Assembly (NCBI GenBank): GCA_040285855.1
Contig: JAUFOQ010000016.1
Location: 2,666,001-2,730,000, forward strand
Origin: Eukaryota sp. GEM-RC1
Taxonomy: Eukaryota
Length of the DNA stretch: 64,000 nucleotides
Direction of reading: 5' to 3'
The position numbers and the translations under genes were made by a program. Below, piece after piece: positions 124-50,792 of this stretch (position 1 is the first letter of the stretch; every line of letters begins with the position of its first letter). Below the pieces are notes generated by a model, which was not told the origin of the DNA, ran no database searches, and saw nothing but the letters and a program-made list of their open reading frames with translations.

Positions 124-3100
124 TTACAAAGGACTAAACAATTTGGCTAAACCATCAAAAATTTCGGACACTTTCAATTTTGATTCCGCCAAGAATTCTA
201 AATCTTCATTGTAATAGCGAACTTCGCAATCTTGAGAATCCATGGGATGAAGTCCGACTCTCAAAACAAACTTCTTTAATAATCTACGATGATTTCTAAT
301 AGATGTCCTTTTGTCAGTTTCTGTAATGAATTTGCTTTGCTAGTAGTGAGTTTCTTTTTAAACTCAGGCTGAACTAATTCTTGTAGGAGCTCGATTGGGA
401 AAGTCTGCTCAACTAAATTTAATATAGTTAAAATCTCTTTAACTGGTTCATTTGCAAAATGGAGTCCAATATTTTGGCAAAAATCGTCAAGTCTTTTCTG
501 TTTCAGAAATGCCTTTAAGCTCATAGATCTGTCATTTGGAAGATCTGTAGCAATAGTTCTAGTGACAATAATAATTTCATTATACAAAGGTTGGTATTCA
601 TCATCAAAAATGGAAGGTGGACAGACAACATTATCATCAACAGTAAAACCTTGTTCCAAAAGAACATCCTCTAAATCCCACAAGTCTTTGGTTTTTGACA
701 ACAAAAACTCTGGTGATTCTATTGGTTCAATTTTGTGCTTAATCAATCCAGAAAGAATGTAACCGTCATAAACGTGATCTACAACTCGTAAACTGCAAGT
801 GAAAGGATCAAGGGTAATACCACGACTGTCATAATTGATTTGAACAAAGGAATCAGAATTGATTGAAAAGAGATCAATCGATCCCAATGAATAATTTCCA
901 ACAAGAGTATTATGAGTATTGACAAATTCCTCTTCAATTAGAGTTCGAATAGGTAATGCATCCTCAGAATCGTCAAGAGTGAATAATCCAAGGCAAGAAG
1001 AATCAGAAATTTTGTTTGGAACAGAAAGAGAAGTGCAACCAACAGTTACATTTCCTGTTCTCAGAGAAGTCCGTAAATCAGACAAAATACCACTATAAGT
1101 ATCACGAGCATCTACAAAAGGCTTCTACTTCCAGTACTGGTCAATATTTTTTTGGTTGGAGTTGCAATAGCTTTGAATTTGAACATTAAAGCGGTCTTTT
1201 CACGAACAAACTTCACCAGTTTTACAAATGCAGGGAGGTGTTCGGCAACGCTCATAAAAATACAAGCTTTAGAAATATCAACATTATTTAAAAATGGTGA
1301 TGACTTGTCAGGAATATCGTTAACAATTGGTGACGATGCAACCAAAGATGACAACGCAGCAACATCACTACCTAATTCCTCTATTGAAACTCCCTCAATT
1401 CTAGAGCTTAAAGTTAGAGCAGTCACATCAGACTTGGGAAGTGGATCAAGTTCAATTGAATTAAGAATGGTCATGATACGATCTTCAGCTTGAAATTTTT
1501 CCTCTATTGATGCACATACAAAATTTGGAATTTCATTAGAAATCTTTCGAATTACGTGCGCAAGGATTAAAGAGACTTGAGGTCTAGTAACACGCAGAAT
1601 GTTGGCCAAAACATTTAAACATTCAATCAATGTATCACGAAGTTGAGCCAATCCATGTTCAACGTCATACATTCTAGCATACTGGTCTCCAATACCATTA
1701 GTAACACAAGCACGAGCTAAGACCATGTACAAAAAGACACATGATCCAAGTAACCAAGATCTTAGATTTGAATAGCGGAATAAACCCTTCATACAAGGTT
1801 CTAAAGTTCCATTAGTAAATACATCGTAACGACCAGGTTGTAGTCCAGGTTGCCATTGAGGATTGGAGGAAAAGTGTTTGAAAGGAACTTCAGGTGAAGA
1901 ATCCATTTGTGACCAATTGATAGCAGAACATTTTGGACACTTGTGTTGATCTGGGCCAGTCCAAACATTAGGCCCACTACCACGATCACTAACTCCTGAG
2001 CGCCCACAATCACCAACAATTTGGGTAAAACCACAAGTTAAACAGTAATAGAGATGCAGTCCAATGTTTTTCAAATGAATTCGTGCAAATGAACTGCTTG
2101 GAAAATTGAAAGGAATAAAATCAGCTTCAATAGAGGAAGTAGTGAAGACTTGACAAGCATCAGAATTTAAAATTTCTCCCAGTGGAAGTAGACAACAAAG
2201 GGAAGTATCAAAAACATTGAAAAGTTGTTTAAAATTTGATTCTGGTATATTCCTATTCTTAGAAATCAAAATAGCAGAAACCTTATGCCCAGTAATTTCA
2301 GATAGGTCAATAGCTCCGCTTTGAAGTCTTTGGACTTCTTCAATGATTGCAGGATTACTCTTATAGTCAGTATCACCTGCTAAACCACTAAAATCGTCAT
2401 CATTCAAGTTCAATGGGGCAAGTAACTCCTGTTTTTGACTGGTAGTTCCATCTGAATCCTTGATTAAACAAGAAAGAGCTTCCATTGCTTCACCCTCAGT
2501 TCCACGTGATAAAAGTAAACGAATAAGGAAAGTCTTTGTTCCAATCAAATGTGATTTTGTCTGTTCTGATGGGTCAAGTGAGAAGATCAACACTTCAATA
2601 GGAAGTGTATGGTTTTTGTCAATAAGATCTGTAATCAAGACAGAAAATAACTTACTATAAAGAGTTATTAGAGTGAGTTGTGAGGCTTTACGTAACTTGT
2701 CCAGTACTTCAGACAGAGTTGGTAAGTGGAAACCAAGTTTAGGCAGACATGAAGCAAATGACTGAGACAAAGAAGCCAAAAACCATGGGAAAGTGTCAGG
2801 ATTAGCATACATTGAAAAGAGAGCTTCAAGAGCAGTCGTTACCGATGTAACAAATGTTGACAATTTTTTCGGCTTTGTTTCATTTATCAGCTTTTCAAAC
2901 AGTTTTTCAAATATTAGTGGAGCTACATCACCAATAACAGAAGAGTCAGTGACAAACTCAAAAAGATTAGATTGTAAGAGCAACTTATGGTCAAAATAAT
3001 CACAAAGAGCTCCAATAACACGTAGCCGATTAGGTGTTGGATCTGACAAGAAGAATTTAATAGTGTCTAAAACACCTTGCTTACTAGTAATTAAATTCTC

Positions 3101-6100
3101 AGAAGCAAGTTCGTCAGGACAATCATGAACATATGCTAACTTTAACCAAGAAGTACATATTCTGCCTAAAGAACTATCCTCAATCTCTAAAGAAAGATGA
3201 GATAACACAGCTTCTTTAGCTTCAGGTTGGAGAGAATTAATGAGCTGGAAACCCAGAGCTGTCGCTGATTGATCCTCATGGATTGGTTGGTTGAGTGATT
3301 GCAGATGAGCAATAACACGTGATTGGTGATACAGTTGTTTGTTTGTCAAGAAAATGTAAAGCTCAGAAAAGAGATCAACGATTGAGGAACAGTCAGAAGC
3401 ATTTTGAACGAAAGAATCTACAAGGTAATCTGATATCTGGAAATATTCAAATATTGGTCGAACAATTGAGGTGATATCGTTGTTTCCAAATTTGCAGTTG
3501 TAATTGTGAAGCAAAACATCGTGAACTGACATATCTTCAATAAACTCCAAAAAGAGATCAAGTTCAGAGTTGTTATCACGATGATATTCAATTAAAGCAC
3601 AAATAAAGTATATGAAATGTAACTCACCAAAATTCAAAATTTCAAAGGAATTGCATGGTAAATTCCAGTGAGGAAATTTCGTCGAAGAAAGAATCCAAGA
3701 AACACAGTGAAGGTAAGAATTACTAGGCATTAAATCGGTATCAAAAGGAATCATCAAATTCCAATCAATTAAAACAGAAAAAACCCCCTGTAATTGAGAA
3801 AGTAAATGACCTTTAACAAATAAATCAAGTTGTTCTAATAAACATTTAGTTTCATTGGTAGAAACATTAAACTGAGTATTTGCAGAAGCTGGAATTCTGT
3901 CAGATTCTTGAAGAAGAGGAAGAACCACGTGGAAAAATTCAACAAAAGCATCTCCTAATGACGTGACCATTTGATAACAAGGTCGGATTTTGGCAGGAGG
4001 AAGAGGCAGTTTCATTAGGGCAGGAACTAGGAGTGATCCATACAGCGGTAATAATTGATCTCGTGGAATATCAGAAACTGAAAAATTGAATAATTGAGAA
4101 ATATTGGAAACAGAATCACCAACTATTGAAGCATAGTTAATTGAGTCACAATAGACTGCAATGAAAGAAGAAAGTGGAGATATCTGGAGACCTTCACCAT
4201 TGATCATGGCGATTACAATATCGAAATTTGAGAGATATTTTAAAAATACTTGGGGATCTGCGTGTTGGCTGAAGTGCTTTTTCAATGTATCAGAAATATT
4301 CAATTTTTCAATGAAATCATAATGCTGAGCCTCATCGCCTTCAATTCTAATAACCAACAAAGATTTGGCTGTTTCTGCTGTATCTTCGTCGAGTAATTTT
4401 TGGATAATTTCAATACCAGTATTTTTCAATAATGTTTTTAAATCACTAGATTCAGAAACACTAGAAACGTTGGCGATTTTCACAGAATCATATCCAGGTA
4501 ATGAGTCAAACGACTGTCCAAACACTTTAGACAGAGCTACGACTTTAAGTGGATGTTGAAGTACGGCAAGACTAGAAAGGTGGTCAAGGGCATGGGTAAG
4601 AGTAAGAAAAGGACCATCATGGGAGTGATTGTTAGATGAAATAACATGGGCAGGATTTGCAAGAAAATGAAGACGTTCAAGACGAAGATTATCAACAAGT
4701 TTCAATTCAGACAGGAAGTTTTGCCGAATTTGAGAATTAGAAATTGAACATTTTGGAAGCGATTTTAAAACACCCAAATCATTAAACATATTTTCAATAT
4801 CAGCAGTTGATTCTTTCACAGCAACAAGATCTGAAAGAACAAACTTTTCCATTCTATTCAAGAGAGCTGGAGGTGTGGATTTTAAATTTTCTTCGGAAAC
4901 TACCAAAATAATTTTAGTTTTTTCATGAACGTGGCACAAAGAGTTAGAAACAGGTCCTAAAGCAACTCTACAAAGAGCATCACCGGTTTTTGTATCTTTT
5001 CTAAGATAATTCTTATTGATTAAATCGAACAAAGCTCCAATAATGTGTTCAGTACCAGAAAGAACAATCACTTTCCCTAACTTAACAGCAGTAATCACTT
5101 TTGATAGATGATTATAGGACACATCATTGTAAGCATCCTTCTCAAACCGTGAACCTTGAACCACGACAATATCTTGCCGTGATCTGTTAATAACATACAA
5201 TGAGAATTGGAGGGAGCCAATAAAGAGAACATGTCTTGAATCGGCGGTTGAATCCTGAATTGATGCTAAACATGCTGTAAGTGAATCCTTTTGAAGTTTT
5301 GGTCGGTCTTGAAAAGTGACTCTACGTGGGTAGAAAAGAGAAGTGACGATGCCCTTGTCGTTCGTTATCCTTTTGAAACATCAGGAGAAAAAATATCAGT
5401 AAGAACTTTAAAAACGGCATCATTCTTTAAAGGTAAACCTCCATAAGCTCTGAGGAACCCATTACGTCGATTCCGTTGGGTAAAATCACTTCTATTCAAC
5501 CACTTAGATAGCTGGTAAGCATCTCTCATACCGTAGAATTGATTACCATGACAAGGATAAATCTTATAAGCTTGAGCCTTCATAAGCTTATGAATCTTTG
5601 TTAGTAGAATGGGAATTTTGTCATCATTATACTGGCCAATTTCCTTCAGTAAAGCAGTAAGTTCAGCATCAGAGGGCTCCTGACGATGGATGACGATAGC
5701 ACGACTAGAAGGAGCGGCATCAAAGTCTGAATTAGAGATTCCAATGAAGGCAAACAGAGGTACTTTTTTCTTCTCGAGGTTCCAGGACAGAATGTAAACA
5801 CTTTAGAGGGTTTGCAGGGGCATCTAAAAGTAAAGAAATTTCGTCCATGATTAGAGCTTGACGAACGTTAGTATCAGCTATTGCATTTTTCTTGACTCTA
5901 TCTACCACGGTCATTACTGATTTAGTAGTTGCGGCGTGACTTCCTTGGAAATGATGAGGGAAAATACGATGAAATCCAGATTCACCAGTATTAACTTTGG
6001 AAAGAAAAGTAAGTAAAACAGTAAGTGAAAGAGACTTTGAAGTTCCTGGAGCACCAATAACCATAATTGGAGTTCTAGAAATTAAGGCAAGAAACATTGC

Positions 6101-9100
6101 AAAAGTATTTTCCAAAAAGTAGGTAGTTTTACGAACACCTTCAGGAAGAGTTCCCAAGTCTACGAACTGAGACAACGTGGTATTAATTCTCTGTTGAGCA
6201 ATAGCCGGTCTAATGTGTAGTTCCCCGCAAATTCTTGATAGAAGTGTGTCTTGATCGACCTTAGTAGGTAATCTAAGAATGTAGCACACGTAAACAGTGA
6301 GGAGAAGCAAGTGCGAAAAAGTGGACTCAGAGAAGAACATGAAACCAGGAGCAAGATCGTTTTTAAATTCGATCAAAAATTTCAAAATTCTTGTTGCTCT
6401 AACTGCATCTCGAAGAGAGATCATCCAAGGAACATTAGCAGCAACTGATATATTGTTCAAGCATTTATGGATTCGTGACAAAGTTCGAGCTAAAGTAGCG
6501 ACTTCAGTAGTGGAACAAATCGAAACTAAATCAGATCGTTCAGCTATTTTAACGACATATTCTTCTTCATCCTGTTCAGACAACTTACCAAAGTCCATCA
6601 TAAGAGGGATTAAACATGAAGGTTCTGGGTGAACATTATACAAAAGCTTATCACCATCACCTTTTTGATATGGATTGATAGCAGCTACTAAACGGACTTT
6701 TGGATGTAAAGTTAGAGTTCCAAGTTTTCTGTTGGTAATTAAACAAGACACAAGTCCTAAGAAATCAGAAGCATTACATTCGTCTAAAAATAGAATCGGA
6801 AAGAGAGGACTTTCAGGAGGAAGTAGTATGGCGAGATCGTTGACCCTTTTAATAGCATCTTCTACTTCGTGAAGTTCTGTACCAGCATTAACGGTAACAT
6901 TAACAAATAATTCTTCCCATAAATTAGGATTTTCAGCAGAATTATTCCAAAATAAAATAAAACTTAAACATTCGAGTAAATGAGTTTTTCCAACACCACT
7001 AGCACCTCGAAGAATGGTTGGCAAATTAGCGGAAAATCTAAGAGCAATTAAGGTTTGTTTAAGGTAAGCATCACCAGTGAGGGCGTAGCTTCCGAAACGT
7101 TCTTTCCATAATTTAGGTGGTACAGAGCTATCAAAAGTAAATGCTCGAATTTTCGAAATTTTACCTTCATCAGCGACTGGAATTTCAACTGAATCCCTGG
7201 AATAAGTGTTCATATCTATATAGGTTTTGAGAGCACGTGGAACTCTACTTCCTCTTGGAACTGTAATTGAAGGAGATTCACGAGTTAACATGAACATAAC
7301 ATGATTCATATCATTCCAATTGATCACAACTTCCTCTCTATCCACAATGGTAGTCGGAACTGACATGAGGACGGTCTGACGAGAAAAACCAAATATCACA
7401 TCAATGACATCACGTCGGATGTCTTGAATGTGACTGACACTGATTCCACTATCACTCATAATGTCAGCACTAAAGAAAGGAGCCTTATCAAAGTAGTTCA
7501 ATTGAGATCCAAGTAAAGAGACAATATCTGTAAGAAGTCTAAATGACCATTGACTTTGATGAGGAGGAGGTAGATCTGCAAAAGTATTAGTAAAAAGAGG
7601 TTCTAACGAAGAAGGAGAATTGAGAAGAGAAGAAAGAAAACGACAAACAGTAGCAGCATTTGCAATCATTTCATCAGAAGTAAAATCAACATGGGAAAAA
7701 TCAAAAGAAAGTTCATGGACCAGACCAGTTTTGTTTGGATACAAAGAATCTATAAGAGAATCATACCAATTAAATGAAGTTGAACTGGCTTTGGAATTGG
7801 CCGCGAACTCAATATACATCTTATTTTCAAGTCTAAAAATAGAACCATTGTGCCGGATACCTGAAAGAAAGGACAAGGAAAACAAAATGTAGCCAGTATT
7901 GTAGAAGTCTTGAGAAGTCAATTTGGATGACGTTGTCCAGTGTTCCCCAGTTAACGTTCTTTTTAAAACATCCAAAGGCTCTCGAATATCTAAATGAATA
8001 TTGGGATTCGTCCAATCAATCTGGTCGTCACGAAGATACTTATCAATAAATTGAGAAATATCGACTTTTCCAGAAATATTAAATGTTTTCGGATGCGTTT
8101 CAACTAAACCTTCATGAATGCATTCTCTTAAACACCTTGTAGTTTTACCTTGACCAGGTACTGCTGACGTGTAAATTGCACCTACAGTACAGCTTTCTAA
8201 TACTGAAGATAGGTCGACTTCTGAAGGAAGGGTACCAAGTACACAGTGGGTATTGTCAAGGAAATCAGTACCACACCCAACTACAGAAATTTTAAAATTG
8301 TCCTTGTTCTTATCCTTCATGTAGATATAGAACTTCTCCCGAACAGAAAATCTCAATTGATCAAAACCAATAATTAATCGTTCAGATACTAGTGAGTCAG
8401 ACATAACTGCAACTAAAGAACTGAAAGAAGTTTCCCAATTACAAATTAAAACATTTCGAATGTTTAATTCAATGTCTCTAGAAACTGCTACTTTCAAAGC
8501 ATCAGTGAAGAGTTTTGATAGAGAATCTGATTGGAAATACGTGATTGATCGGTCTTTGATTTCAACAGAAGGAGGAGGAGAATTGAAGATTTCCTCGAGT
8601 TTAACATTAACAGAATTACTGGCATCAATTCCAGATTGAGCCTCTTCATTTATTAAATATTCTGGAATATCAAAGAACACCTGAATATCAGCCACTCGAA
8701 GTTTTAAAAGAAAATTTGAAATTTCTTTTGGATGCATCCCTCTAAACCAGCCATTTTGAGCTTGTTCCAAGAGAGTCATCCAAGTATCACGTAATTCTCG
8801 TAAAGTCTCGACTTGTTGTTGAATACCAGAGTTATGTTCTTCAATCATGACAATAAGTTCAGGCTCATTAGATTTGATGGGAAAACCACAATCAACTAAT
8901 TGTCTCAAAATAAAAAGTGTTTCATCAACTAGCTGGCACATATTTAAAAATTCATCTCTTTTTCATCATCAACTCCAGACTTTCGATCAACTTGTTCCTC
9001 GATATTCTCAATTGATTCTGCTTGTAAAAGAATTCCTTCAGCTCTAGCTCTATGAAACTCCTCTTCTGGGACATCAATTGTACTACCTTCACCAGTAGGA

Positions 9101-11947
9101 AGTTGCAGACCGACAGTGATGGTCTCAAGATTGAAAAGTAACGTTCCTTCTTGGAAATTACACTTAGAAATGATATTAATCAAAGCAGATTGGTCACCAT
9201 CACTGCCCAACAATTCATTAATTGCCTTGATTGCACTCTTTAATTGATTGATGGACTTACAATCGGCAGCAACACGTTGAGGAGAGTGGCAATTTTCTTC
9301 CATCCAGACATGCAGATTCCTTATAAGCTGACGCATATAGACATCTCCACCATGAAATACTGGCTTTAATACAGAATTCCAAAGAGATTTGGGATCATCC
9401 AACATACTGATAAAAAACTGAGCAACAGAGCTATTAACAGTATAAGATGCGGCAAAGTTACCATAAAGCTTTGATGAAAGTTCTTCAGGAGTTAAAGTAG
9501 AGTATTTGTTCAGAATTGAAAGTAATTCATCTACATTGTTAAGAAGTTGGAAGATTTGTAAAAACAGTGGTGGTGACGTACGATTGCAATGACTACAATC
9601 AATCAGTGAACTGAAATTCTTGGAGTAAGATCCAAAGTCAGATAATAAAGAATCTGAAGAGAGTTCCTGAATAGAATTAAATTTTTTATCAGCAAGCGAA
9701 ATTTTGATTGAGCTCAATAATCCAGAAGCCTTCTGGAAACAAGCGATGATTGGATCCCACACGTGACGATTGACCCATGATTTGATATTGAAAAGATCTT
9801 CTTCATGAAGTTTTCCAGAGGGATTTAGAAGAGAGAGAATTTCGATTTCATTAAACATTTCTTCTTCATTAAAATCACTGTAGACGGATTCCAAATGAGA
9901 AGCCTTGACATCAGGTTCAAGCAATTGGGTAATGAATTGTAGAATTTGTTGAGAAATTGTAGCAGCAACCGTGACAAGGTCAATTCCAGAAGGGACATCA
10001 CCTTCTTGATCTTCTTCAACAATATCCCCTTCTTCGTCATCACTAAGGAGGATGGCAGGGAGCTCAATCATGACGTTTGAACTGGAATTAACATAGCTGG
10101 TATAGAAATGACGGAATAGAGCCGTAGAAGAGATCTTTGCAACTAAAGTTTCAGGAGGGAACTTATTATCGAACTGAACGCCTTCCAAAAAGGCGGAAAC
10201 AATCTGAGTGATAACAGTAGAAATTGGATTAGCCAATACAGTAGATAACTTCGCAGTAGATACGAAAAGAGAGTCTTTCAGTTTGTGAATGGAATTGAAT
10301 TCGTCAGGTAGATCGAAGACTTCAGCAATAGTAACAAAATCAGTGAGCTTTAGCTGGAAGAGTTCAATTTGAGAAAATATTTCGGTAAATCGACTACGCA
10401 AAGACTCCTCGACAGTATCTTCAACTTGTAATAACCATGATGGCGCAAAATTAGCAATGAACTTTTCAAAGTTAGTTCCTTCTTTTAATAAAAGAATATC
10501 TCCTACTACGCAAGTTTCTTCAATGTTATTGTAAACATTCTTGCAATATGCAAGAGCTTGACTCAAAGGAATTTGCATGATGAAAGCCTCGCGTAATGGT
10601 GGTTCAATCAAGCTTTCTAGACAATCAAAGGAAATGTTGGAAAAAAGCCGAGTCAAATACTGCTGAATTTCTGGAGTTTGTGACCATCCATTGAAGATAT
10701 TAGGAAGGCCCAGAACAAGAGTTTGGAACAAGTTATGAACAGAACCACGTTGTACAAATTCACGAAGAATTACAATTAAAACTTTTTGAGTTTTAGAGTC
10801 TAGTTTGAAGAATTCAACAATGACTGGAATAGCTTGTATAACAGACTTCGTATGCTTAAAATTCTTCAAGAGTTCCCAAAATTGAGCATTGTTATTGAGA
10901 TGTGTGGCTACAAACGCCAAAGCATGAGGGTTCTGTCGTATGATCAAGCCAATGGATTTAAGAAAGTTGTCGGGTGAGAGTAAACCATCCTTCCAGTTCC
11001 TGAAGAGGAATTTGGAAAGGAGTAAGGAGTTGTTGTCATGTTGAAGCCGATTTAGTATTGGTTCGTGAAGAGAGTCATGGACCTTGAGAGAGAGGTAGCT
11101 ATGGGGGAGAACATCAATAAGTTGGGTACAGAATTGGTGGGAAAGCTCTTTAGGAAAAGGAGAAGAAGCGAGACGGAGAAAGCTGGTTGGGGATTGATCT
11201 TTGAAAGAGCGGAGGCTTCGACTGAGCAAATGTTGATGTTGAGAAAGAAAGCCGAAATCTGGTTGGAAGGAGGACTGACCGGAAAGAGCGGAGAAGACTG
11301 GGAAGAGAATTGAATGGTCTGAGTTATGTTGGAGGAAATGGCTAACGATGGCAGAAGAGTTGCGGAAGGACCAAAACTGTGGAGACTGGAAACAACAATG
11401 AAAGAGATTCGGTGGATATGTGGCTTAGAAGAGACCTGAACAGAGCTAAGCAATCAATGAGGAGGGGAAGTTGATGGTAGCGTACAAGAACTCTGATGGC
11501 GAACTGGATCCCTTCTGTCAATCCATGTGAAGAGAAATCTACGACAAATTGGCCCGCGACAGCCATATCGAATATTCTCCTTGTGATACGGCATAGAAAA
11601 TCCAGATCTTTGATATACTGCTGGCCACTATGGAGAACATCAGCGAGAGCAATTAGCAGCTCACCAGCATAAAAGGGAGTGTTGCGCCCTAAGCAAGAAT
11701 CGATGATGACGGGATCCTTATCACGACTGTTATCATGATACTCACGGTTATATCCAGGTTCTATGGCATTCTTAGAACGATACTTGTATTCAAATGACTG
11801 TTTGTCCAGTTTGACAAAGTAGCAACGTCCTTCCCCTAATTGTGTCAAAGAAATGGCTCGAACCCAGTAATTAAAGGACCCTTTTATAGAAAATGGACCC
11901 TGAATACCTTTCAAAAGGACAAAGCATGGTACTTGTTGTTTCACCAT
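124..11947 (-). CDS. RNF213: RNF213/mysterin-like giant AAA+ ATPase / RZ-finger E3 ligase (copy A, ~3,900 aa): CBM20-like N-terminus, helical stalk, dynein-like AAA modules, E3 module with RZ finger, C-terminal domain
   Basis: Consecutive minus-strand ORFs 11342-11959, 8944-11229, 5732-8941, 5365-5583, 1112-5200, 276-1085 and a tail ending TAA at 124-126 join by single-base shifts, mostly in homopolymers. Motifs matching RNF213: GSFNYW..FEYKY..EPGYNR (CBM20-like), PGQGKTT, GASGVGKT/LFLDECN, GAPGTSKS/MDEISL..PLKCLHSVLE, FYGMRDAY, GSRFEKD, CRVALG, PPALLNRMEK, and RZ-like YYCLTCGFTQIVGDCGR..CPKC. Likely start ATG at 11947 (MVKQQVP). Confidence 0.88.
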
Positions 11948-12129
11948 AAATGAAAGCAAATGATAGAATTAAATTTCTGGAATGTTTCTTCTAGTTGTTC
12001 GATTTGATTTAGAAGACAGATCAATAATGATAAGATCACTTCATGTTGATGAGACCATATGCTATGTTCGCCCCACAATATACAATGATCTTCAATTGCA
12101 GCAACGAAACATTTGTTTTGTGTTTCAAC

Positions 12130-12766
12130 CATAGTTGTGGATACCTATATCCCAATAAATAGAATACCTAATACCTGCCAAAATACCAAAATACCGAATA
12201 CCTCAGCCTGATACCTGAATACCCAGAAAAATGATTGAACACATTATCGAAACTAATTTATATAACCTGTTGTACAAACATCTAACTCAACAATCCACAG
12301 TGCTACAAACTATGTTACTCGTCACTTCGTCTTGATTTTCTTCCACTTTGGCATAGTCCATCCCTATGGTTGACAACCATTACACCTGATATCCACAAGT
12401 TCTTTCGTGAGAACCTTGGCTGTGACAAGCTTCCACAATGAGTTCTTAGAAGTTTGCCTAACGGTGGCAAAAGAAGTGTCCTCTTTTTGGGAAAAGATTC
12501 AAAGAGAAGGTTGGCAACAATTCAACAAACAGTTTTAATCTGGTGTTGACTTAGAACACGTACAATGTATCCATTTGTTCAAAAATAGAAAACTTGATTA
12601 ATCTAAATGAATATACTAAACAAAATTAATACTATTTAAATGTAGCATTAGAAGGGTACTTTTGGTAGTGACAGGTATCTCCAATATGAGACATGAAAAT
12701 ACCTAATACCTACCTCAATACCTAATACCTACCGAAATACCTCGAATTTAGGTATCCACAACTATG
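12130..12766. mobile_element. Non-autonomous hAT-type MITE, 637 bp
   Basis: Perfect 18-bp TIR CATAGTTGTGGATACCTA (12130-12147, inverse 12749-12766); 8-bp TSD GTTTCAAC (12122-12129, 12767-12774); subterminal ATACC(T) repeats at both ends. Confidence 0.93.
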
Positions 12767-13713
12767 GTTTCAACAGTTTGCAATGTAGATATACGGAAAT
12801 GTTGGACCAGCTGCATAAGGTTTTCTATCACCCTTTGGTAAATTGAACAGTTTATTGATGGAGGGTACAAAAATGTATATCATAATCAAAGCTATGATAC
12901 ACTAGACACCGAAAATTCCTGGTCCACAGTACCACAGTTTTTATACAACGTTGTGAAAATTGATTTAAAAAACTTAGGCATCGAACGGAACAACGAACAA
13001 ATCAAACAGTTATGCCAAATTGATAAGTTAATTCTCTTAATTTCATTAATTAATTGGTAAATTGTGTTCTGAGTACGGTAAAGTTTTCAATCAAAATTTC
13101 TGATAGAGGTTAACAACGCACAGGTAATTGAATTCAATTTTAGGTAAGTTGTTGGGTGATGGACAGAAAATCATAGTTTAGATAGTTTAGATAGTGTCTG
13201 TTAGTTATTGTTTTCTGCAAAAGCCTTTATTTCACCGATTGATCATAAACCCCGTTTTTTTGGAATACAAGTGATATATGTAGAGACTAAACAACTAAGA
13301 TTTGATACAAATTGTATCATTAAAGCAAAACCCGTCCTATCAAAGATTAGAACAAAATATACTAAGAGTGCTAAAATGTTCACTTATGTTCATTTAAGTT
13401 CAGTCAGAGTCTTGAATTGTTGGTACGTTGTTGTTGATGTAGTTGGATGTATCAGATCAGTTCCTGGAGCAACTAGGCGTCTAGAAGAAGGTGCGGATAA
13501 GTTTTCACTTGGTCGTCCCTTAGTTTCTGAACAAAATTTGGTTAATAAGAAGTGGCAGTTTGAAGGAGATACCATGTGTTGATGTGTTAATTGTTTTGGT
13601 TGTTTTCGACCAATTTTGGAAGGCGCAAAATGTATACACTTTGAAAAGTCATCGGTATGCACTTTTCAAAAACAGGGTACAGTACGCCTGGGTATTATTC
13701 ATGGTTTTGAAAA

Positions 13714-15968
13714 ATGAAAACCAATTCCTTCACACTTCATATGGACTGCTTTGTCTGTTATCAGTCATTTAATCTATCTTCTCGTCTTCCTCTATTGATT
13801 TGTTGTGAAGAACACACTGCCTGTACTGAATGCTCTGCTTCTCTTAACAACTGTCCCATCTGTCGTACCAAATGTCTCACCGAGAAGAAAACCAATTTTG
13901 CTTTACAGGATCTCGTCCAAGCCTCTCGTAATGGCAATCTTTGTCCTCAAATTCCCTCCGATCACATACTTCTGGGAGCCAAGATCGCAAAGGAGGTTTT
14001 GCTGTCGTCTACGCATCACGTTATCCTTTCTCAATATGAGACTACATCAATTGTTGCTTCCATGATCTTCGTGGACGTTACTCTGTATATGAGACAACTT
14101 CTATTCTTGACTGAGAGCATCTCAGTTTTCTCTTGACATCTCTTCTTCTTCCCTGTCGCTGTAAAGATGGTTGAACTCACGGAAAAGGAAAACTCCAACT
14201 CCAAAAGGAAATGAATCTGCTCTACAACTTGAATCATCCTTCTATTATACGTGTCTATGGCATCTCCTTCTTCAATGAATCCATTGGTATCGTGATGGAA
14301 AGAGCTTCTTCTTCCCTCTCCTTCCCAAGTTCTCTGTCACCAGTAACACTTAGATACGTTAAAGAGCTTTGCCAGGGTGTCAAGTTTCTCCACCTGAAGT
14401 CTGTTGTACATGGTGACTTGAAACCAGGTAATATTCTTTTAGTGGATGGTCATGTTAAAGTTGCTGATTTTGGTACTTCCCAAACTGTTTCAGCTACTAC
14501 TAGAGTAACGAGCGCTAATGCTGTGACTTTCACATACGCAGCACCTGAACAATTTGATGATCCTCCTGGTCCTTTTAGTGACATTTATTCTCTTGGATTA
14601 GTTATTTATGAAATTTTGTCTGGAAAAGAAGCTTTTGAAGGGTATTCAACGAAGCAGATTTTTGGTGCGAAATTTCGAGACAAACCATTACCTTTTGATT
14701 CTTCAGTACCTGATTGTTTAAAGGATTTAATTTCAAAATGTTTGAATTCTGATCCCATGCTACGACCAACAATCAATGAAATCATTGAGGTTATTAAAAG
14801 TGTGATTGTTTCTGATTGTGATGATCAATCATTTTTTATTAACGACGGAAATCTTAAGGAGATCATTTCCCTTTTGAAGAGTGAAAAGAATAGTTTGAAG
14901 GTGAAAGTTTGTGATTTAGAAAGTAAATTTGAAAAATCCTGTCACGTTTCAAAAGGACTTCCTTTAATTACCCCATTGGTTATAAGTGATAACGATTTTA
15001 GTGGTCTAGCAGGTGATACTGACTATAAGAGTAATCCTGCAATCATTGAAGAAGTCCAAAGACTTCAAAGCGGAACTATTGACTTATCTGAAATCACTGG
15101 GCATAAGGTTTCTGCTATTTTAATTTCTAAGAATATGAATATACCAGAATCAAATTTCAAACAACTTTATAATCTGTTTGAAATATATATTTCATACCTA
15201 CTTCCACTCGGTGAAATTTTAAATTCTGATGCTTGTCAAGTCTTTATGTATTCCTTTATTGGTGCTGTTTTTATTCCCTTCAATTTCCCAAATAGTTGTT
15301 TTTCAAGAATTGGTATAAGTATGTATAGGTTTCATAGCTACATGTACTACTGTTTAACTTGCGGTCACACTCAAAGCGTTGGTGAAGATGGTAATCGTCC
15401 TGATGTTTGGAAATGGGTAGCTAATAATTGTCCAAAATGTTCTGCAGTCAATTGGGCACCAAAGAATTCTTCACCTGAAGTTCCTTTTAAACACTTTTCC
15501 TCCAATCCTCAATGGCAACCTGGACTACAACCTAGTCGTTACGATGTATTTACTAATGGAACTGTAGAACCTTGTATGAAGGGTTTATTCCGCTATTCAA
15601 ATCTAAGGTCTTGGTTACTTGGATCAAGTATCTCTTTGTACATGGTCTTAGCTCGTGCTTGTGTTAATAATGGTATTGGAGAACAGTATGCTAGACTGTA
15701 TGACGTTTATCATGGATTGGCTCAACTTCGTGATACATTAATTGAGTGTTTAAATGTTTTGGCCAACATTCTGCGTGTTACTAGACCTCAAGTTTCTTTA
15801 ATCCTTGCACACGTAATTCGAAAGATTTCTGATGAAATTCCAAATTTTGTATGTGCAACAATTGAGGAAAAGTTTGAAGCTGAAGCTCGTCTTATGACCA
15901 TTCTTGATTCAATTGAACTTGATCCACTTCCCAAGTCTGATGTGACTGCTATTACTTTGAGTTCTTGA
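13714..15968 (+). CDS. Chimeric RING finger - Ser/Thr (TKL-like) protein kinase - RNF213 E3/RZ-module protein
   Basis: RING: CFVC..LICCEEHTACTECS..CPIC. Kinase: (K)GGFAVVY after a 1-base shift at ~13990, VAVK, HGDLKPGN, DFG, APE, SDIYSLG. From ~14964 to the stop it is a close copy of gene A 1400-2425. An unexplained ~120-nt insert lies at ~14021-14140. Confidence 0.82.
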
Positions 15969-16331
15969 ACGGAAACTTCTTGTTGGAAATTATACTAGTA
16001 GTTTTCTTGTCCTTGAGGTATTTTTTGAGAACATTTACAAATCAACCTTCAACAATAATAATCTATTTGTCAATAACCTAATTGTATATTTGAAATCATT
16101 CAGTTCAACACACAAACCAAGGATCAGAAATAACATATTTATGTTTATTGTACACCAACAATATTTTCTGACACTATGAGAACTGGAACAATATGGTACA
16201 TGTGTAGTTACTGTGAATAATAAATATATATTGACAACATTTTGCTAATGGAATATGCTAGTACACACAACACGGAGCCTATTTGCAACAAAAATTTGGT
16301 ATACGTTACATTGACGTAAAATAAAATAGCG

Positions 16332-17153: not shown

Positions 17154-18473
17154 TCTTCAAAATTGTTACAACAATATAGCTGGGTTCATCCACAATATAT
17201 ATATACTGTTATAATGCGGCGCATAGTATGTCTATCTCAGCCAGTGATGGTAGTAAGTTCTTCATGCAATCCAATCTACTGTAAATCAATTGTTTTGATT
17301 TACATTTTAGATGTCGTCATTGTAGCACATGTTTTGCGATGTACAGCTCCTCCAATCGCTCTGAATTTTTGTAGAACTTTTAACGAGTTGAGGATTAATT
17401 TTTTTGTATCAATATTAAAAGTTGATTCAACGTTAGGTAGAAGTTACTTGTTTACTTCTGCCCATTTTGGTGGTATTGTTTTTATCAAATCGTCAATTTT
17501 ATGCAAATCTTCATTTTTAGGTGAAAAAGTTTCATTATTGAATTTGTTAATCGATTTCTTTATGATATTTGACCTACTAACCCCAATTCGTCTAAATATT
17601 TATTGAACTTAAACTAAGCGTTGATTAAATTACCGTTTGACGTTTGGTCTCAATGTTTCCAAGAATCTGTGTCTGAAAAAGCTGAAAAATCTTTGACTAA
17701 TCTTCAGTTCTGTCTCAAAAAATTACAACAGAAAAAACAAATATTATTGAAAGGATGGATTATAGTGTTCGACTTGGCTTTGTCAAGGAAAAAAATTCCG
17801 TTTTTGCAAATTGTTTAATGAATGTTTCTGATGGCTCTGCTTCATTTCTGATTACTTATACTCCTCAAGTTTCCAGTATTTTTCTTGGTCATTAAACATG
17901 CGTTTACGGTCATGTATTTGGCCTGATAATTCTCCATATAATTTGAAATGCCAAAGTGGGCAATCTGTAATGCTAAAAACCATCTGTGCATTGGTGAATT
18001 TTTTTTGCCGTAGTGTCATTCACGTGTGTACAGCCTTTTACTCAACACTGAAATCCTTTTAAGAACATTTGAAGGGCCCCAAAAAGCAAGTTCCCAATTC
18101 AAGTAGAATAAAGTGATTTTATTACTTGCATTGTATTAAAGTTGATTGAGATACCTAGTTAGGATGTACAGTCAATTACAAGAGAAAATTGTTATGCCAC
18201 CTTACAATCTCATTATACAAAGTCAATTCTCAGAAAACAATGTTAGTAATGTTGTTCAAATTCTGATGGTTTCTGCTGATGTGCAGAAATATATGTGTGT
18301 GTGTTAACCGGACCCATACGAACCGTAGAGGTTTCTGATGAATATAACATTCTCATGTAATTAAACACGGAAAACATGTTACATGCACCTTAAATGGTGT
18401 AGCCGGTGTTGAGCATATCAAACTTGTCAGAACTGCGGAATGAATTTCAATCTCTTGTTCTTCTCTTGATCAG

Positions 18474-21400
18474 ATGATGATATCGTTTCCAATTTCTCCC
18501 CTCAAAACACAGATAGCTTCCGCTTTGTTGAAAGACTTACAGATCGATAATAATTCCCCCCGTGAAATTTTAGTTGCAAAGATTGCTTCTACGGCTTTAT
18601 TCCATCATTTCTACACCATCTATGTTAATTCCTGTTCCGATTTCCTGCTTGAGCATCCTGCCACTCTGCTTAGTGATGACAAAGACGTCAAAGATTCTTT
18701 TGAAGAAGATCAAGATGATAATGTCCCTTCTGGACTTGATCCTGTAGCGGCTGCTGCTACAATTTCTCAACAAATTCTACAATTCATTGCCCAACTTCTT
18801 GAGCCTGATGTCAAGGCTTCTCATTTGGAGTCTATTTATAGTAGTTTTAAAGAAGGAGAAATGTCTAATGAAATTGAAATTCTTTCTCTCCTTGATTCCT
18901 CTGGAAAACTTCAGAAAGACGTACTTTTTAATATCAAATCATGGGTCAATCGTCACGTGTGGGATCCAATCATTGCATGTTTCAAGAATATTTCCGGAAT
19001 ATTTAGTGTCATCACAGTTTCAGCATCCATTGTTGATAGAAGATATGCTTTTGATGTGGAACTCTCTTCAGAATCTCTATTATCTGATTTTGGATCTTAC
19101 TCCAAGAAGTTCAGCTCAATGGTTGATTGCAGTCATTGCAATCGTACGTCACCGCCACTCTATTTACAAATCTTCCAACTTCTTAACACTGCGGATGACT
19201 TACTTCGAATTCTGAACAAATACTCAGCGTTCACACCGGAAGAACTCTCCTCAAAGCTTTATGATAACTTTGCCACCTCTTTTGCTCTTAGTAGCTCTGT
19301 TGCTCAGTTTTTCATTAGTATGTTGGATGATCCCAAATCTCTATGGAATTCGGTATTAAAGCCAATGTTTGATGATGGAAATGTTAACATGCGTCAGTTA
19401 TTAAGAAATCTTCATGACTGGATGGAAAAGATTGCCACTCTCATGATCGTGTCGCAGCAGATGTTAAATCAATCAATCAATTAAAGAGCGCAATCAAGGC
19501 GATTGATGAGTTGTTGGTCAGTGATGGTGATCAATCTGCATTGATTAATATCATTTCTAAGTGTAATTTCCAAGAAGGTATTTTACATTTCAATCTTGAA
19601 ACCATTACTGTCAGACTACAACTTCCTACTGGAGAAGATAGTACAATTGATGTCCCAGAAGAGGAGTTTCATAGAGCCAGAGCTGAAGGACTTATTTTAC
19701 AAGCAGATTCCATTGAGAACAACGACAAACAAGTTGATCGAAAGTCTGGAGTTGATGATGAAAAAAGAGATGAATTTTTAAATACGTGCCAGTTAGTTGA
19801 TGAAACTCTTTTCATTTTGAGACAATTAGTAGATTGTGGTTTTCCCATCAAATCTAATGACGATGAACTTATTGTTATGATTGAAGAACATAACTCTGGT
19901 ATTAAACAACAAGTCGAGACTTTACGAGAATTACGTGATACTTGGATGACTCTCTTGGAACAAGCTCAAAATGGCTGGTTTAGAGGCATGCATCCGAAAG
20001 AAATTTCCTATTTTTTCTTGAATCGTCAAGTGTCTGATATAGTGAAATTTTTTCATCTGTCGGGTTTGGACTGTAATTCAATCCAATCACGCAAAAATGT
20101 TCAATCAGGAATTGATGCTTGTCCCTCTGTTAGTGACACACTGCAGGAAGTTCTGAATTTTAGGGAACCATCATCTGTTGAAACCAAAGACCGATCAATC
20201 ACGTACTTTCAATCAGATTCTCTATCAAATCTCTTTAGTGATGCGTTGAAAGTAGCAGTGCACAGAGAGATTGAATTAAACATTCGAAATGTTTTAATTT
20301 GTAATTGGGAAACTTCTTTCAGTTCTTTAGTTGCTGTTATGTTTGACTCATTAACATCTGAACGATTAATTATTGGTTTTGATCAATTGAGATTTTCTGT
20401 TAGGGAACAGTTCTATACCTACATGAAGGATAAGAACGAGGAAAATTTTAAAATTTCTTTAGTTGGGTGTGGTACTGATTTCCTTGACAACACCTACTCT
20501 GTACTTGGTACCCTTCCTTCGAAAGTTGACTTGTCTGCAGTGTTAGAAAGCTGTACTGTAGGTGCAATTTACACGTCAGCAGTACCTGGTCAAGGAAAAA
20601 CTACAAGATGTTTGAGAGAATGCGTTCCTGAAGGTTTGATTGAAACTCATACAAAAACATTTAATGTTTCGGGAAAAGTTAATATTTCTGAGTTTATTGA
20701 AAAATATCTTCGTGATGATAAGATTGATTGGACAAATCCTAATATTCATTTAGACATTCGAGAGCCTTTGGATGTTTTAAAAGAACGTTCACTCGAGAAC
20801 ACTGGACAACGTCATCCAATTTGACTTCCCAAGACTTCTACAATACTGCTTACATTTTGTTTTCATTGTCCTTTCTCTCAGGTCTTCGTCACAATGGTTC
20901 TATTTTTAGACTTGAGGAAAAGATGTATATCGAATTTGCATCGTACAATTCCAAAGCCAGTTTAACTCCATTTAATTGGTATAATACTCTTATTGATTCT
21001 TTATATCCAAACAAAAATGGTCTTGTCCATGAACTTACTTTTGATTTTTCCCATGTTAAATTCACTTCTGAAGAAATGAAAGCACACGTCGCTACAATTA
21101 ATCGTTTTCTTTCCACTCTTCTCAATTCTTCTTTTCATTAGAACCTCTTTTCACTAATACTTTTGCAGATCTACCTCCTCCTCATCAAAGTAAATGGTCA
21201 TTTAGACTACTTACAGATATTGTTTCTTTACTGGGATCACAATTGAACTATTTTGATCAAGCTGTTGCCTTTTCTCCTGAGATTATGACTCTAAATGGGT
21301 ATAGTGACAGTCAAATTGATGACATTCGCCGTGGTGGTATTGACCTAATATTTGGTTTTTCCCGTCAAGCAGTTCTCATGTCAGTACCTACGATCAGTGC

Positions 21401-24400
21401 TCCTAATAGAGATGAAGTTGTGGTTAATTGGAATGATATGAATCATGTTATGTTCATAGTAACTCGTGATTCAATAACATCTACAATTCCAAGAGGAAGT
21501 ACCGTTCCAAATGCTCTCAAGTCCTATATCAGCTTGTATGAGTCATTTCGAGATTCTCCTGCAATTCCATCCTCTGATGAAGGTAAAATTTCAAAAATTA
21601 GATCTTTTACATATAACAGCTCTGTTCCACCTATATTATGGAAACAAAGTTTCGGAAGCTACGCCCTTACCGGTGATGCGTTCCTTAAACAATCCTTAAT
21701 TGCTCTTAGATTTTCTGCTAATTTGCCTACCATTCTTCGAGGTGCTAGTGGTGTTGGAAAAACTCATTTACTTGAATGTTTAAGTTTTGTTTTATTTTGG
21801 AATGAATCTGCTGAAAATCCTAATTTATGGGAAGAATTGTTTGTTAATGTTACTGTAAATGCTGGTACAGAACTACACGAAGTAGAAGATACTATTAAAA
21901 GGGTCAACGATCTCGCCATACTACTTCCTCCTGAAAGTCCTCTCTTTCCAATTCTATTTTTAGATGAATGTAATGCTTCTGATTTCTTAGGACTCATGTC
22001 TTGTTTAATTACCAGCAGAAAGCTTGGAACTCTAACTTTACATCCAAAAGTCCGTTTAGTAGCTGCTATCAATCCTTATCAAAAAGGTAATGATGATAAG
22101 CTTTTGTATAATGTCCATCCAGAACCTTCATGTTTAATCCCTCTTATGATGGACTTTGGTAAGTTGTCTGAAAAGGAAGAAGAAGAATATGTCGTTAAAA
22201 TAGCTGAACGATCCGATTTAGTTTCGAGTTGTTCCACTACTGAAATCACTACGTTAGCTAAGACATTGTGTCGTATCCATAAGTGCTTGAACAATAGATC
22301 TGCAGCTTCAAATGTTCCTTGGATGATCTCTCTTCGAGATGCAGTTAGGGCAACCAGAATTTTAAAATTTTTAATCGAATTTAAGAACAATCTTGCTCCT
22401 GAATTCATGTTTTTCTCTGAAAGAACCTTTTCTCATCTACTTCTGCTTACTGTTTACGTTTGTTACATCCTTAGATTACCAACCAAGAATGACCAGAACA
22501 GTCTTCTAAAAGTAATTTGCTATGAACTACGTACTTCACTTACTGTTGCTAGACAACAAATCAATACCACTTTGTCTCAGTTCGTAGACTTGGGAACTCT
22601 TCCTGAAGGTGTTCGTAAAACTACCTACTTTTTGGAAAATACTTTTGCAATGTTTCTTGCCTTAATTTCAAGAACTCCAATTATGGTTATTGGTGCTCCA
22701 GGAACTTCAAAGTCTCTTTCACTTACTGTTTTACTTACTTTTCTATCCAAAGTTAATACTGCTGAGTCCGGTTTTCATCGTGTTTTCCCTCATCATTTCC
22801 AAGGAAGTCACGCGGCAACTACTAAATCAGTAATGACTGTGGTAGATAGAGTCAAGAAAAGTGCAATAGCTGATACTAACGTTCGTCAAGCTTTAATTAT
22901 GGATAATTGTTCTTTACTTTTAGATGCCCCTGCAAACCCCTTAAAATGTTTACATTCTGTCCTAGAACCTCGTGAAGAAAAAGTACCTGTGTTTGCTTTT
23001 ATTGGAATCTTTAATTCAGACTTTGATGCCGCTCCTTCTAGTCGTGCTATCGTCATCCATCATCAGGAGCCCTCTGATGCTGAACTTACTGCTTTACTGA
23101 AGGAAATTGGCCAGCACAGGGGTACCAAAATTCCTGAACTTTTGACCAAGATTCATAAGCTTATGAATTATCAAGCTAATAAGATCTACCCTTGTCATGG
23201 TAATCAATTCTACGGTATGAGAGATGCTTACCAGCTATCGAAATGGTTGAATATTGGAAGTGGTTTTATTCAAAGGGATCGTCGTCTTGGTTTCCTCAGA
23301 GCTTATGGAGGATTACCTTTGAAGAATGATGCTATCTTTGAGGTTGTCTCCACAATATTTGCTCCAGAGAAGAAAAAGAGGGTGAGGAATGAATCTGGTA
23401 CTGAAGATATCGATCTTTTCTTTGATAAACCACTCCCCCGATCCTTCCGATCACAACTTGACAAGGAATTACTTATAGCATGTTCACGATCTCTCCGAGA
23501 TCCGTCTCCTGATTCAAGACATATTCTCTTCATTGGGTCACTCCAACACTCTTTGTATATTGTTGACAGGTCACGGCAAGATGTGGTCGTGGTTCAAGGA
23601 TCTAGGTTTAAAAAGGATGCTTATAATGACGTGTCCTACAATCATCTATCAAAAGTGATTACTGCTGTAAAGTTAGGGAAAGTGATTGTTCTCTCTGGTA
23701 CTGAACACATTATTGGAGCCTTGTTTGATTTAATCAATAAGAATTACCTTAGAAAAGATGCCATCACTGGTGATGCTCTGTGTAGAGTCGCTTTAGGCCC
23801 TGTTTCTAACTCTTTGTGTCACGTTAATGAAAAAACTAAAATTATTTTGGTAGTTTCAGAGGAAAATTTAAAATCCACACCTCCAGCTCTCTTGAACAGA
23901 ATGGAAAAGTTTGTTCTTTCAGATCTTGTCGATGTGAAGGAATCAACTGCTGATATTGAACGTCTGTTTGATAATTTGGGTGTTTTAAAATCTCTGCCAA
24001 AATGTTCAATTACTGATTCCCAAATTCGTCAGAACTTCCTATCTGAGTTGCAACTTGTTGATACCCTTCGTCTTGAACGTCTTCATTTTCTTGCAAATCC
24101 TGCCCATGTTATTTTATCTGACAATCACTCCCATGACGGTCCTTTTCTTACTCTTACCCATGCCCTTGACCACCTTTCTAGTCTTGCCGTACTTCAACGT
24201 CCACTTAAAGTCGTAGCTCTGTCTAAAGTGTTTGGACAATCATTTGACTCATTAACTGGATATGCTTCAGTTAAAATTGCCAATATTTCTAGTGTTTCTG
24301 AATCTAGTGATTTGGAGAGTTTGTTGAAAAATACTGGTATTGAAATAATTCAAAAATTACTTGACGAAGAAGCTTCAAAAACGGCTAAATCTTTGTTGGT

Positions 24401-25456
24401 CATTAGAATTGAAGGTGATGAGGCACAACATTATGATTTCATTGAAAAATTCAGTATTTCAGATGCATTGAAAAAGTACTTCAGTAAACACGCAGATCCC
24501 CGAGTATTTTTAAAATATCTCTCAAATTTCGATATTGTCATCGCCATGATTAATGGTGAAGGTCTTCAGATATCCTCACTGTCCTCTTTCATTGCAGTCT
24601 ATTGTGACTCAATTAACTTTGTTTCAATAGTTGGTGATTCTGTTTCCAATATTTCTCAATTATTAAATTTTTCAGTTTCTGATATTCCACGAGATCAATT
24701 ATTACCGCTGTATGGCTCACTCCTAGTTCCTGCCCTAATGAAGCTACCTCTTCCTCCTGTCAAAATCCGACCTTGCTATCAAATGATTACATCTTTAGGA
24801 GATGCTTTTGTCGACTTTTTCCACGAGGTTCTTCCTATTCTTCAAGAATCTGACAGAATTCCAGCTTCTCCAAGTACTCGGTTCAATGTTTCTACTAATG
24901 AAAATAAGTGTTTGTTCGAACAACTTGAAGTATTTGTTAAAGAACAATTACTTGTTCAATTACAGGGGTTTTTTCTGTATTAATTGATTGGAATTTGATG
25001 ATTCCTTTTGATACTGATTTAATGCCTAGTAATTCTTACCTTCACTGTGTTTCTTGGCTTCTTTCTTCGACGAAACTTCCTCACTGGAATTTAGCATCCA
25101 ATTCCTTTGAAATTTCAAATTTTGGTGAGTTACATTTCATTTACTTTATTTGTGCTTTAATTGAATATCATCGTGATAACAACCCTGAACTTGATCTCTT
25201 TTTGGAATTTATTGAAGATATGTCAGATCACGAGGTTTTGCTTCATAATTATACCTGCAAAGTTGATGAAAATGATATCACCTCAATTGTTCGACCAATA
25301 TTTGAATATTTTCAAATTTCAGATTACCTTGTCGATTCTTTCGTTCAAAATGCTTCTGACTGTTTCTCAATCGTTGATCTCTTTTCGGAGCTTTACATTT
25401 TCTTGACAAAGCAACAACTTTATCACCAAAGTAAAATGTTAGTTAATGTTAACTGA
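18474..25456 (+). CDS. RNF213-like paralogue B, truncated at both ends (distal stalk + AAA core + start of E3 back; no CBM20, no RZ finger)
   Basis: ORFs 18474-19484, 19511-20824, 20821-21141, 21243-24983 and 24995-25456 align collinearly with A 10227->3323. All four joins are -1 homopolymer deletions (~19427, ~20780, ~21133, ~24966). Homology stops at LYHQS (~25430), next to a hAT remnant. Could be a functional gene or a pseudogene. Confidence 0.8.
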
Positions 25457-31492: not shown

Positions 31493-31889
31493 TTGATCTA
31501 ATTTTTCAGTAACTGAATCTCAACTCAAAAGAGTTTGATTTTCCATATATCGATATTTATGGTGTAGGTGAAGATACTACGGTGATATGCAGATCGTACA
31601 ACAGAGTGATAGGTTATTGATCTGTATAACAGTAAGACGATGATCTTCTAAACTTACCATGTTGTGGGGAAGTTATGACCGAGCTATGTTGAAATGAAAT
31701 CTAAATCCCCTTTCACCACTCTTTCTGATGACTTGTGTCTTCTTTTTTTCTTCTTTTAAAAAAAATAAAAAATTTAAACAATACTAAGTTATTGCCATAT
31801 TGATATACGTGAGGTGTCTTATGATATGTACAAATCTAATATTCTGGTAGTTGTAAAATTGAAACATTTTCAAAGCATTAAATTGCATA

Positions 31890-41070: not shown

Positions 41071-41155
41071 TTGCAAAAATGTTGTTGGTCCACACACCAT
41101 TTTTCATAAACAAAAATGTTGAGTTCTGGTTTTTGCACTTTTCTTACTTCCACAA

Positions 41156-50517: not shown

Positions 50518-50792
50518 TGTTGTAGTTGTAGATTTGTTTAATTTCATATTAGGTTTTTATCTTCCCCCTTACATCTATAGAGGTTCGTTCCTTATAAAGG
50601 TTCTCCTCTTCCAAGTATGTATTCCTATAGTGCACAAAGACCAACAGTAATTACTGTGAGCAATCCCCATTCTACCAACTCACTATCAGCACCGCTCTTG
50701 AACGGAACCTCCCGTATCGAGTCATGTAAGTTCTTGGAAGACCTCCAAGCTTATGTTGCTGCTCTTCAAGCTTTCGAAGCATTGTCCCGCCC
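50518..50792 (+). repeat. 3' terminal repeat (LTR) of Gypsy family 1
   Basis: 275-bp direct repeat of 43830-44104, preceded by purine-rich AATAAGAAGAAAATGCAG. Confidence 0.88.

Follow-up and report, generated by a model that had tools for sequence, protein, structure and literature searches.

A stretch of 64,000 nucleotides from Eukaryota sp. GEM-RC1, a free-living protist (metamonad), contains an open reading frame (ORF) in which a protein kinase is followed by a piece that resembles part of the antibacterial enzyme RNF213. This whole stretch is referred to below as the window. RZ-type ubiquitin ligase (E3) activity has been described from RNF213 and ZNFX1, and the RNF213-like piece carries a zinc finger that may be of this kind. 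Has a kinase captured an RZ finger that then lost its catalytic cysteine, and what might such a finger do on a kinase?

A kinase joined to an RNF213-like lobe

The fusion resides in one 597-codon ORF on the forward strand (14175-15968), in which the C-lobe of a kinase, a short linker and a 334-residue RNF213-like piece are encoded in frame (Table 1). A 585-residue product of the chimera that starts at 14211 is an entry in a public protein collection. The Pfam Pkinase match covers only positions 44-259 of the 263 in the profile. Within the main ORF, the αC glutamate (QKEMN, 14202), the aspartate of the catalytic loop (HGDLKPGN, 14409), DFG (14466) and APE (14541) are all present, and the captured piece is in frame with them, as had been predicted. 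The same prediction held that the kinase core is intact. This is not so in the assembly, because the glycine-rich loop is cut off by two stops and the VAVK lysine of strand β3 lies in another frame; both of these features of active kinases are present in the DNA, yet outside the frame of the chimera ORF. The linker is probably a coiled coil, judging from its sequence pattern.

Table 1. Features of the chimera and of related or control genes in the window
Feature	Coordinates	Strand	Remarks
Gene A, RNF213-like AAA+	276-11947	-	Five long ORFs as assembled
RING ORF, 140 aa	13714-14136	+	C3HC4-type RING (13747-13866) ending CPICR, linker, start of kinase strand 1
Kinase glycine-rich loop, GGFAVVY	13992-14012	+	One base off the RING ORF frame; A-run near 13990
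Unexplained insert, about 130 bp	14020-14150	+	Between glycine-rich loop and VAVK; internal 28-nt repeat (79%)
PVAVK, catalytic lysine	14152-14166	+	One base off the main ORF frame; A-run near 14185
Kinase, αC to end of C-lobe	14175-14786	+	Pkinase E 2.3e-38; motifs
Linker	14787-14963	+	50 residues shorter than the P0003 linker (in-frame deletion)
Captured RNF213-like E3 lobe, 334 aa and TGA	14964-15968	+	By blastn and VIA; predicted to correspond to human RNF213 about 4375-4709
RZ-like finger of the chimera	15345-15440	+	Four cysteines kept; conserved Cys-Gly loop lost to an in-frame deletion of 24 nt (within 15375-15401)
Gene B, second RNF213-like copy (87% to gene A)	18444-25429	+	Without both ends; 2.5 kb downstream of the chimera
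SNF2-type helicase gene	27016-31519	-	Five ORFs as assembled; homopolymer runs at some of the breaks

The 5' end of the chimera is less orderly. The RING encoded upstream has all eight ligands of the C3HC4 pattern, falls into RING clusters of the Atlas (0.91) and matches Pfam Sina_RING with an E-value of 1.5e-4, which is below the cut-off. Its ORF ends in a stop before the main ORF and is separate as assembled, and the product starting at 13714 is absent from the public protein collection. The VAVK lysine sits in the frame of the RING ORF, behind a stop. The continuity from RING to kinase to RZ that the original prediction assumed is not borne out by the assembly as it stands. A single canonical intron in the kinase N-lobe was considered as a source of the insert and rejected: no single GT-AG or GC-AG intron repairs the reading frame, and a stop is left by each of the 14 candidates that restore its phase.

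The two single-nucleotide shifts in this region are likely to be homopolymer assembly errors. Single-nucleotide frame breaks are widespread in the window, and at least five of the seven single-base gaps between genes A and B fall in homopolymer runs. The SNF2-type helicase gene, which we take to be Mot1/BTAF1-like, served as a control for assembly error. The source assembly of the GEM-RC1 paralogues discussed below was built from Nanopore R9.4 reads and corrected with Illumina reads (PMC11316075). Such an origin, together with the frequency of similar breaks in the window, makes assembly error plausible for the two shifts, whereas the insert is a different matter. The RING ORF is likely to be the 5' end of the chimera gene, and a continuous RING-kinase-RZ protein, although a prediction, is likely as well.

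Both borders of the captured piece can be placed by homology. From 14964 to 15969 the chimera aligns to gene A (2425-1399) with 84.9% identity over 1033 columns (blastn, E=0), and beyond the piece ungapped identity is at background (19/90 before 14964 and 24/90 after the stop). Homology ends at TCT-AGA in gene A and TCT-TGA in the chimera. The stop codon thus has the position that was claimed for it, but it need not have arisen by a point mutation from AGA: homology ceases at that very codon, and the TGA may come from flanking DNA. Three indels separate the piece from gene A (+6, -24 and -3 nt), all of which keep the frame. Gene A matches at the DNA identity given above, but the paralogue P0030 is closer at the amino-acid level (84%, compared with 80% for gene A), and the donor may be a different copy. 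Gene A and the chimera are arranged head-to-head, and the interval between their divergent starts measures about 1.77 kb. It contains an inverted repeat of 30 nt (90%; 12121-12150 and 12746-12775).

The sequence match to RNF213 is weak for gene A itself (E 8e-4) and strong for P0030 (E 1.7e-40, in the AAA region). Structures were predicted for the corresponding stretch of P0030 (pLDDT 67) and for the captured piece (pLDDT 54), with the finger loop under 50 in both models. Foldseek ranked the RNF213 E3 module first for each, at E-values that are not significant (0.074 for P0030 and 0.26 for the chimera). VIA matched the P0030 model to residues 4288-4704 of 9jwg_A (Z 13.0, rmsd 4.3, 225 residues; next-best Z 3.6) and the captured-piece model to residues 4375-4709 (Z 12.8, rmsd 3.6, 186 residues; next-best Z 3.4). 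With this tool, helical bundles may generically reach Z values of up to about 13, and the output consists of ranges, not residue pairs. Both ranges span RZ residues 4505-4537, consistent with a modelled finger that is inserted in the C-lobe of the E3 shell as in RNF213. The best Z in a wide VIA search of 48,161 representative chains was 4.5; RNF213 is absent from that output and may not be among the chains compared. On the basis of these models, we predict that the captured piece corresponds to the E3 lobe of RNF213 that carries the RZ finger. The chimera stops at about RNF213 position 4709 and appears to have no RNF213-type C-terminal domain (CTD); a CTD deletion studied in mouse RNF213 spans 4930-5148 (10.1101/2021.05.10.443411). 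An AAA+ ring is present in gene A and P0030, and none was found in the chimera.

The finger and its missing cysteine

The RZ finger of RNF213 extends from C4505 to H4537, and C4516 is its nucleophile (PMC11549300). In gene A the corresponding finger lies at 2050-1928 on the reverse strand, with the motif GDCG at 2014-2003. All four putative zinc-binding cysteines are kept in gene A and in the chimera, and both motifs occur where they had been reported. The cysteine of GDCG is indeed gone from the chimera, but an in-frame deletion of 24 nt from the loop describes the change better than a mutation of GDCG to GEDG. We rejected the point change because, in the alignment of paralogues, the deletion is the better fit; it takes out eight residues, the Cys-Gly of GDCG among them.

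The residues lost are ones that full-length homologues keep. Twenty-nine columns are invariant among five full-length homologues, and the chimera retains 27 of them; the two exceptions are that cysteine and its glycine. Across seven sequences with identities down to 22%, 18 columns are invariant, including the four finger cysteines and the Cys-Gly pair. At the place of gene A's GDCG, P0030 reads GECG. The cysteine is kept in six of the six readable skoliomonad homologues of full-length type (gene A, P0030, P0001, P0032, P0033 and P0034) and also in the fragment P0026. P0035 and gene B were excluded from this count because the finger is unreadable in them.

Profile searches bear on the identity of the finger to differing degrees. 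The chimera has no match to the Pfam RZ finger profile PF20173 (curated cut-off 27 bits). Two of the seven members of the homologue alignment, gene A and P0030, match it below threshold (10.9 bits, E 0.36 for P0030), and the P0030 match at residues 172-193 spans GECG. The top Atlas cluster for the finger is PF20173 at 0.76, which is a lead only. When a profile of the homologue alignment was run against the PDB, RNF213 was not matched, and the top hit, an antibody chain, was taken as chance. The finger region also resembles the zinc ribbons of rubredoxin and MCM (Z about 3).

The finger differs from its canonical counterparts in several details. Its ligands, whose metal binding is putative, are four invariant cysteines (C-x2-C...C-x2/4-C) in place of the canonical C-H-C-C (C-x3-H...C-x2-C in RNF213). 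Twelve residues separate the first ligand from the GDCG-type cysteine, compared with 11 in RNF213 and ZNFX1, and the loop is longer here. The general-base histidine found nine residues after the last zinc cysteine in RNF213 (H4537) is absent from the chimera, gene A and P0030. Most homologues carry a histidine 5-9 residues after the conserved cysteine, a candidate substitute for the general base by its position; gene A and the chimera do not. In gene A, an arginine occupies the place of this loop histidine (1987-1973, reverse strand). If the histidine is the general base, then gene A itself may be impaired. An all-cysteine finger with a relocated candidate histidine would widen the definition of RZ beyond the Pfam model.

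Taken together, the finger is very probably an RZ homologue, and the lost cysteine is probably the equivalent of the catalytic cysteine of RNF213. This central claim of the original prediction is the most likely reading, given a Cys-Gly pair that is invariant at 22-26% identity, the GECG of P0030 and a lobe that matches RNF213 4288-4709. For these same reasons the term pseudo-E3, although a prediction only, is well founded.

Two junction classes and the question of constraint

The chimera in the window is not the only fusion of its type. An exhaustive HMMER search yielded nine proteins, three of which, of about 4000 residues, come from two other named skoliomonad isolates. Five other kinase fusions are attributed by their source to Eukaryota sp. 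GEM-RC1 and are likely to reside in the same genome as the window, which brings the total to six, in two junction classes. In the long class (P0004, P0006 and P0007), the kinase is joined at about gene-A coordinate 3286, and the cysteine is kept in both copies that can be read at this point; in P0006 the reading frame is lost ahead of the finger. In the short class (the window copy, P0002 and P0003), which has a common junction of KGLP followed by L, the cysteine is absent from all three members, through deletion in the window copy and P0002 and replacement by serine in P0003. The window copy and P0002 are 98% identical and represent one event, so the cysteine was lost at most twice. Their pairing is the sole grouping that a tree resolves among the GEM-type copies.

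As far as the junction, the linker is common to the long and short classes, and the short class may therefore have arisen by trimming of the long one. Gene B breaks off on its 3' side at gene-A coordinate 3323. The long chimeras begin about 12 codons further on, which suggests a shared breakpoint. Neither an N-lobe nor a RING is annotated in any of the five paralogous fusions, and a strict RING pattern had no match in any of the five long homologues. Two of the five fusions, P0003 and P0007, start out of frame within the catalytic loop of the kinase. They belong to different junction classes, and both open with MVTWKPGN at the same frame break. This common start may be a real shared lesion, a product of gene conversion or a systematic error.

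Two metagenome scans gave 140 and 225 pattern matches, among which no relative was confirmed. In the protein collection, the chimera's own protein (P0008) is clustered with unrelated Pseudomonas proteins of 51-56 residues and thereby escaped the search for homologues. Clustering of this kind may conceal further members of the family.

Pairwise comparison of the captured piece with gene A gives a dN/dS of 0.49 over 332 codons (81 non-synonymous and 46 synonymous differences). This value is below 1, but dS is a mosaic by region (0.17, 0.60 and 0.11), a pattern suggestive of gene conversion or of another donor. The branch of the chimera itself therefore cannot be credited with the constraint, which may be a legacy of the donor or may have been renewed by gene conversion. 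Regional dN/dS values from the two DNA copies range from 0.37 to 0.65, with 0.46 for the variable segment and 0.65 for the finger; the finger and the segment before it form the most variable part among the paralogues. Positive selection on the finger was rejected on this pairwise comparison, in which no region has a dN/dS above 1. Under uniform change within regions, the chance that the chimera would keep all 27 invariant residues is about 0.009. Enrichment of changes at variable columns (35/207, compared with 9/103 at conserved columns) is borderline (p=0.058).

Possible roles of the captured lobe

We tentatively favour a reading in which the disarmed RZ lobe may be a binding module that is kept on the kinase and tunes it. 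Recombination inside an expanded, rearranging RNF213-like family would have placed an E3 module behind a RING-kinase, with the cysteine retained, to give the long class. Later trimming would have produced the short class, limited to one lobe, in which the cysteine was lost (to serine in P0003 and by deletion in the window copy and P0002). The lobe would still bind the ligand of its parent, whether ubiquitin itself, a target modified with it or a ligand of microbial origin, and binding would change the activity or location of the kinase. The RING, if it is truly in the chimera protein, would be the sole remaining E3.

Mechanistic studies of RNF213 and ZNFX1 are compatible with a lobe that binds without catalysis. 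In RNF213, the CTD is the main docking site of the E2, which also contacts the E3 shell more weakly, and ubiquitin is then passed to the RZ cysteine (10.1101/2021.05.10.443411). The short capture stops ahead of the CTD and lacks the RZ cysteine; it is therefore very likely incapable of transthiolation and unlikely to hold an E2 firmly on its own. The finger of ZNFX1 is immediately preceded by a helix that is needed for activity and for which binding to the hydrophobic patch of ubiquitin is predicted (10.1101/2025.10.14.682297). The chimera model has a helix at a like place, with pLDDT under 50, that serves as a lead only.

It is somewhat unlikely, though the main rival reading, that the chimera is instead decaying debris of ectopic recombination in a repeat-rich, expanding family, with an N-lobe that is truly broken and a cysteine loss that escaped selection. 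The insert in the N-lobe is unrepaired, gene B is truncated near the long-class junction, and many fragmentary paralogues exist. P0003 and P0007 have their common out-of-frame start in the catalytic loop, APE is changed to ASE in three long-class kinases, and P0003 has lost four of the 29 invariant columns. Polarisable amino-acid changes are also more numerous on the chimera side (35) than on that of gene A (22), with 9 unclear. Evidence against decay includes a 597-codon ORF that is open across the junction, three indels and a linker deletion that all keep the frame, a loss confined to the catalytic loop with 27 of 29 invariant residues preserved, and the duplication of the short class after its deletion (window copy and P0002). 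If the 5' lesions are real, then the chimera is a pseudogene that still records the rearrangement of the family.

Two further readings are less likely still. It is improbable that the ancestral long chimera was a kinase-gated ligase in which ubiquitin was relayed from RING to RZ, with the short class having cut the RZ branch, which would leave the RING as its sole output, and kept its lobe as a passive scaffold. Retention of the cysteine in the long chimeras and a chimera RING with all eight ligands, ending CPICR, agree with this idea, and so does a likeness to the Miz-plus-RZ pair of ZNFX1. The RING-like domain of ZNFX1 docks an E2 and works with or without the RZ cysteine, and its two branches lead to different chains (10.1101/2025.10.14.682297, 10.1101/2025.09.05.674436). 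However, RING linkage is putative for the window copy and seen in no paralogue, a kinase and linker intervene between RING and RZ, and the canonical general-base histidine is absent. Very improbable is a disarmed lobe that acts as bait for a microbial inhibitor of RNF213-type ligases, or that poisons or regulates the gene A product. The head-to-head arrangement with gene A at about 1.77 kb recalls plant sensor-helper pairs, the finger and its preceding segment are the most variable part among paralogues, and RNF213 is a known effector target (10.1101/2024.09.24.614686). Yet dN/dS is nowhere above 1 (0.46 in the variable segment and 0.65 in the finger), and the effector IpaH1.4 binds only the RING of RNF213 (10.1101/2024.09.24.614686), which does not match the captured lobe, so there is no direct precedent for a decoy at this lobe.

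A binding module on a kinase, the reading that we favour, can be compared with three known systems. The parent genes resemble RNF213 in their AAA region, in the fold of the E3 lobe (Z about 13, a score near those that helical bundles can reach generically) and in the GxCG cysteine of the finger. The chimera differs from RNF213 in having a kinase and in lacking the AAA ring, the catalytic cysteine and, apparently, the CTD. It resembles ZNFX1 in that an RZ finger stands behind another module that uses nucleotides; if the RING belongs to the chimera protein, the two also have in common a RING-type dock for the E2 on one chain. ZNFX1 activity is reported to survive loss of the RZ cysteine. In the chimera, by contrast, that module is a kinase, the RZ finger is accompanied by the RNF213 shell lobe and the loss of the cysteine is natural.

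In plants, integrated-decoy receptors and kinase-fusion resistance proteins carry an altered defence-related domain on a signalling protein, with a head-to-head partner. The chimera is similar in that a signalling protein has captured a catalytically altered domain and its gene faces that of a partner head-to-head, but it is found in a protist, has no NB-ARC or LRR, shows no sign of positive selection and has no known effector. It is unlikely, though conceivable, that the fusions form a RING-kinase-RZ immune family built from RNF213 parts, with kinase-gated RING-to-RZ relay ligases that keep the cysteine and natural pseudo-ligase sensors that lack it and signal through the kinase. On such terms the kinase would be the third nucleotide module found with RZ, after the AAA ring and the helicase, and the family would be a protist counterpart of plant integrated decoys.

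In the listed titles and abstract openings from outside the subscription journals, we found no kinase-RZ fusion, no natural RZ without its cysteine and no metamonad RNF213 family; neither 'kinase' nor 'ubiquitin' occurs in the main text of PMC11316075. The fusions are a new predicted RZ architecture, of which one class looks active and the other disarmed. If they are expressed, the coexistence of fusions with and without the cysteine is a natural experiment on RZ lobe binding apart from catalysis. Expression would also make them evidence that RNF213-type defence has been shuffled into kinase signalling in single-celled eukaryotes.

The remainder of the window holds several unrelated features. 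A 1617-codon ORF on the reverse strand (32845-37698) is, by its predicted domains, a kinesin fusion of receptor-like type: besides the motor it encodes carboxypeptidase-regulatory-like repeats, BspA-type LRRs and what is likely to be a membrane span. Roughly the first 200 residues presumably resemble a PEP-utilising enzyme. An ordinary KH-domain gene of the KHDC4/BBP-like type lies at 41123-42118 on the forward strand. The region from 43830 to 64000 consists of LTR retrotransposon material, in which a 275-nt repeat occurs at 43830, 50518 and 58958, and ORFs at 59369-63999 are, we assume, protease, reverse transcriptase and integrase-like. It also contains a near-identical duplicate of 4.6 kb (46348-50928 and 54794-59370, 99.5%).
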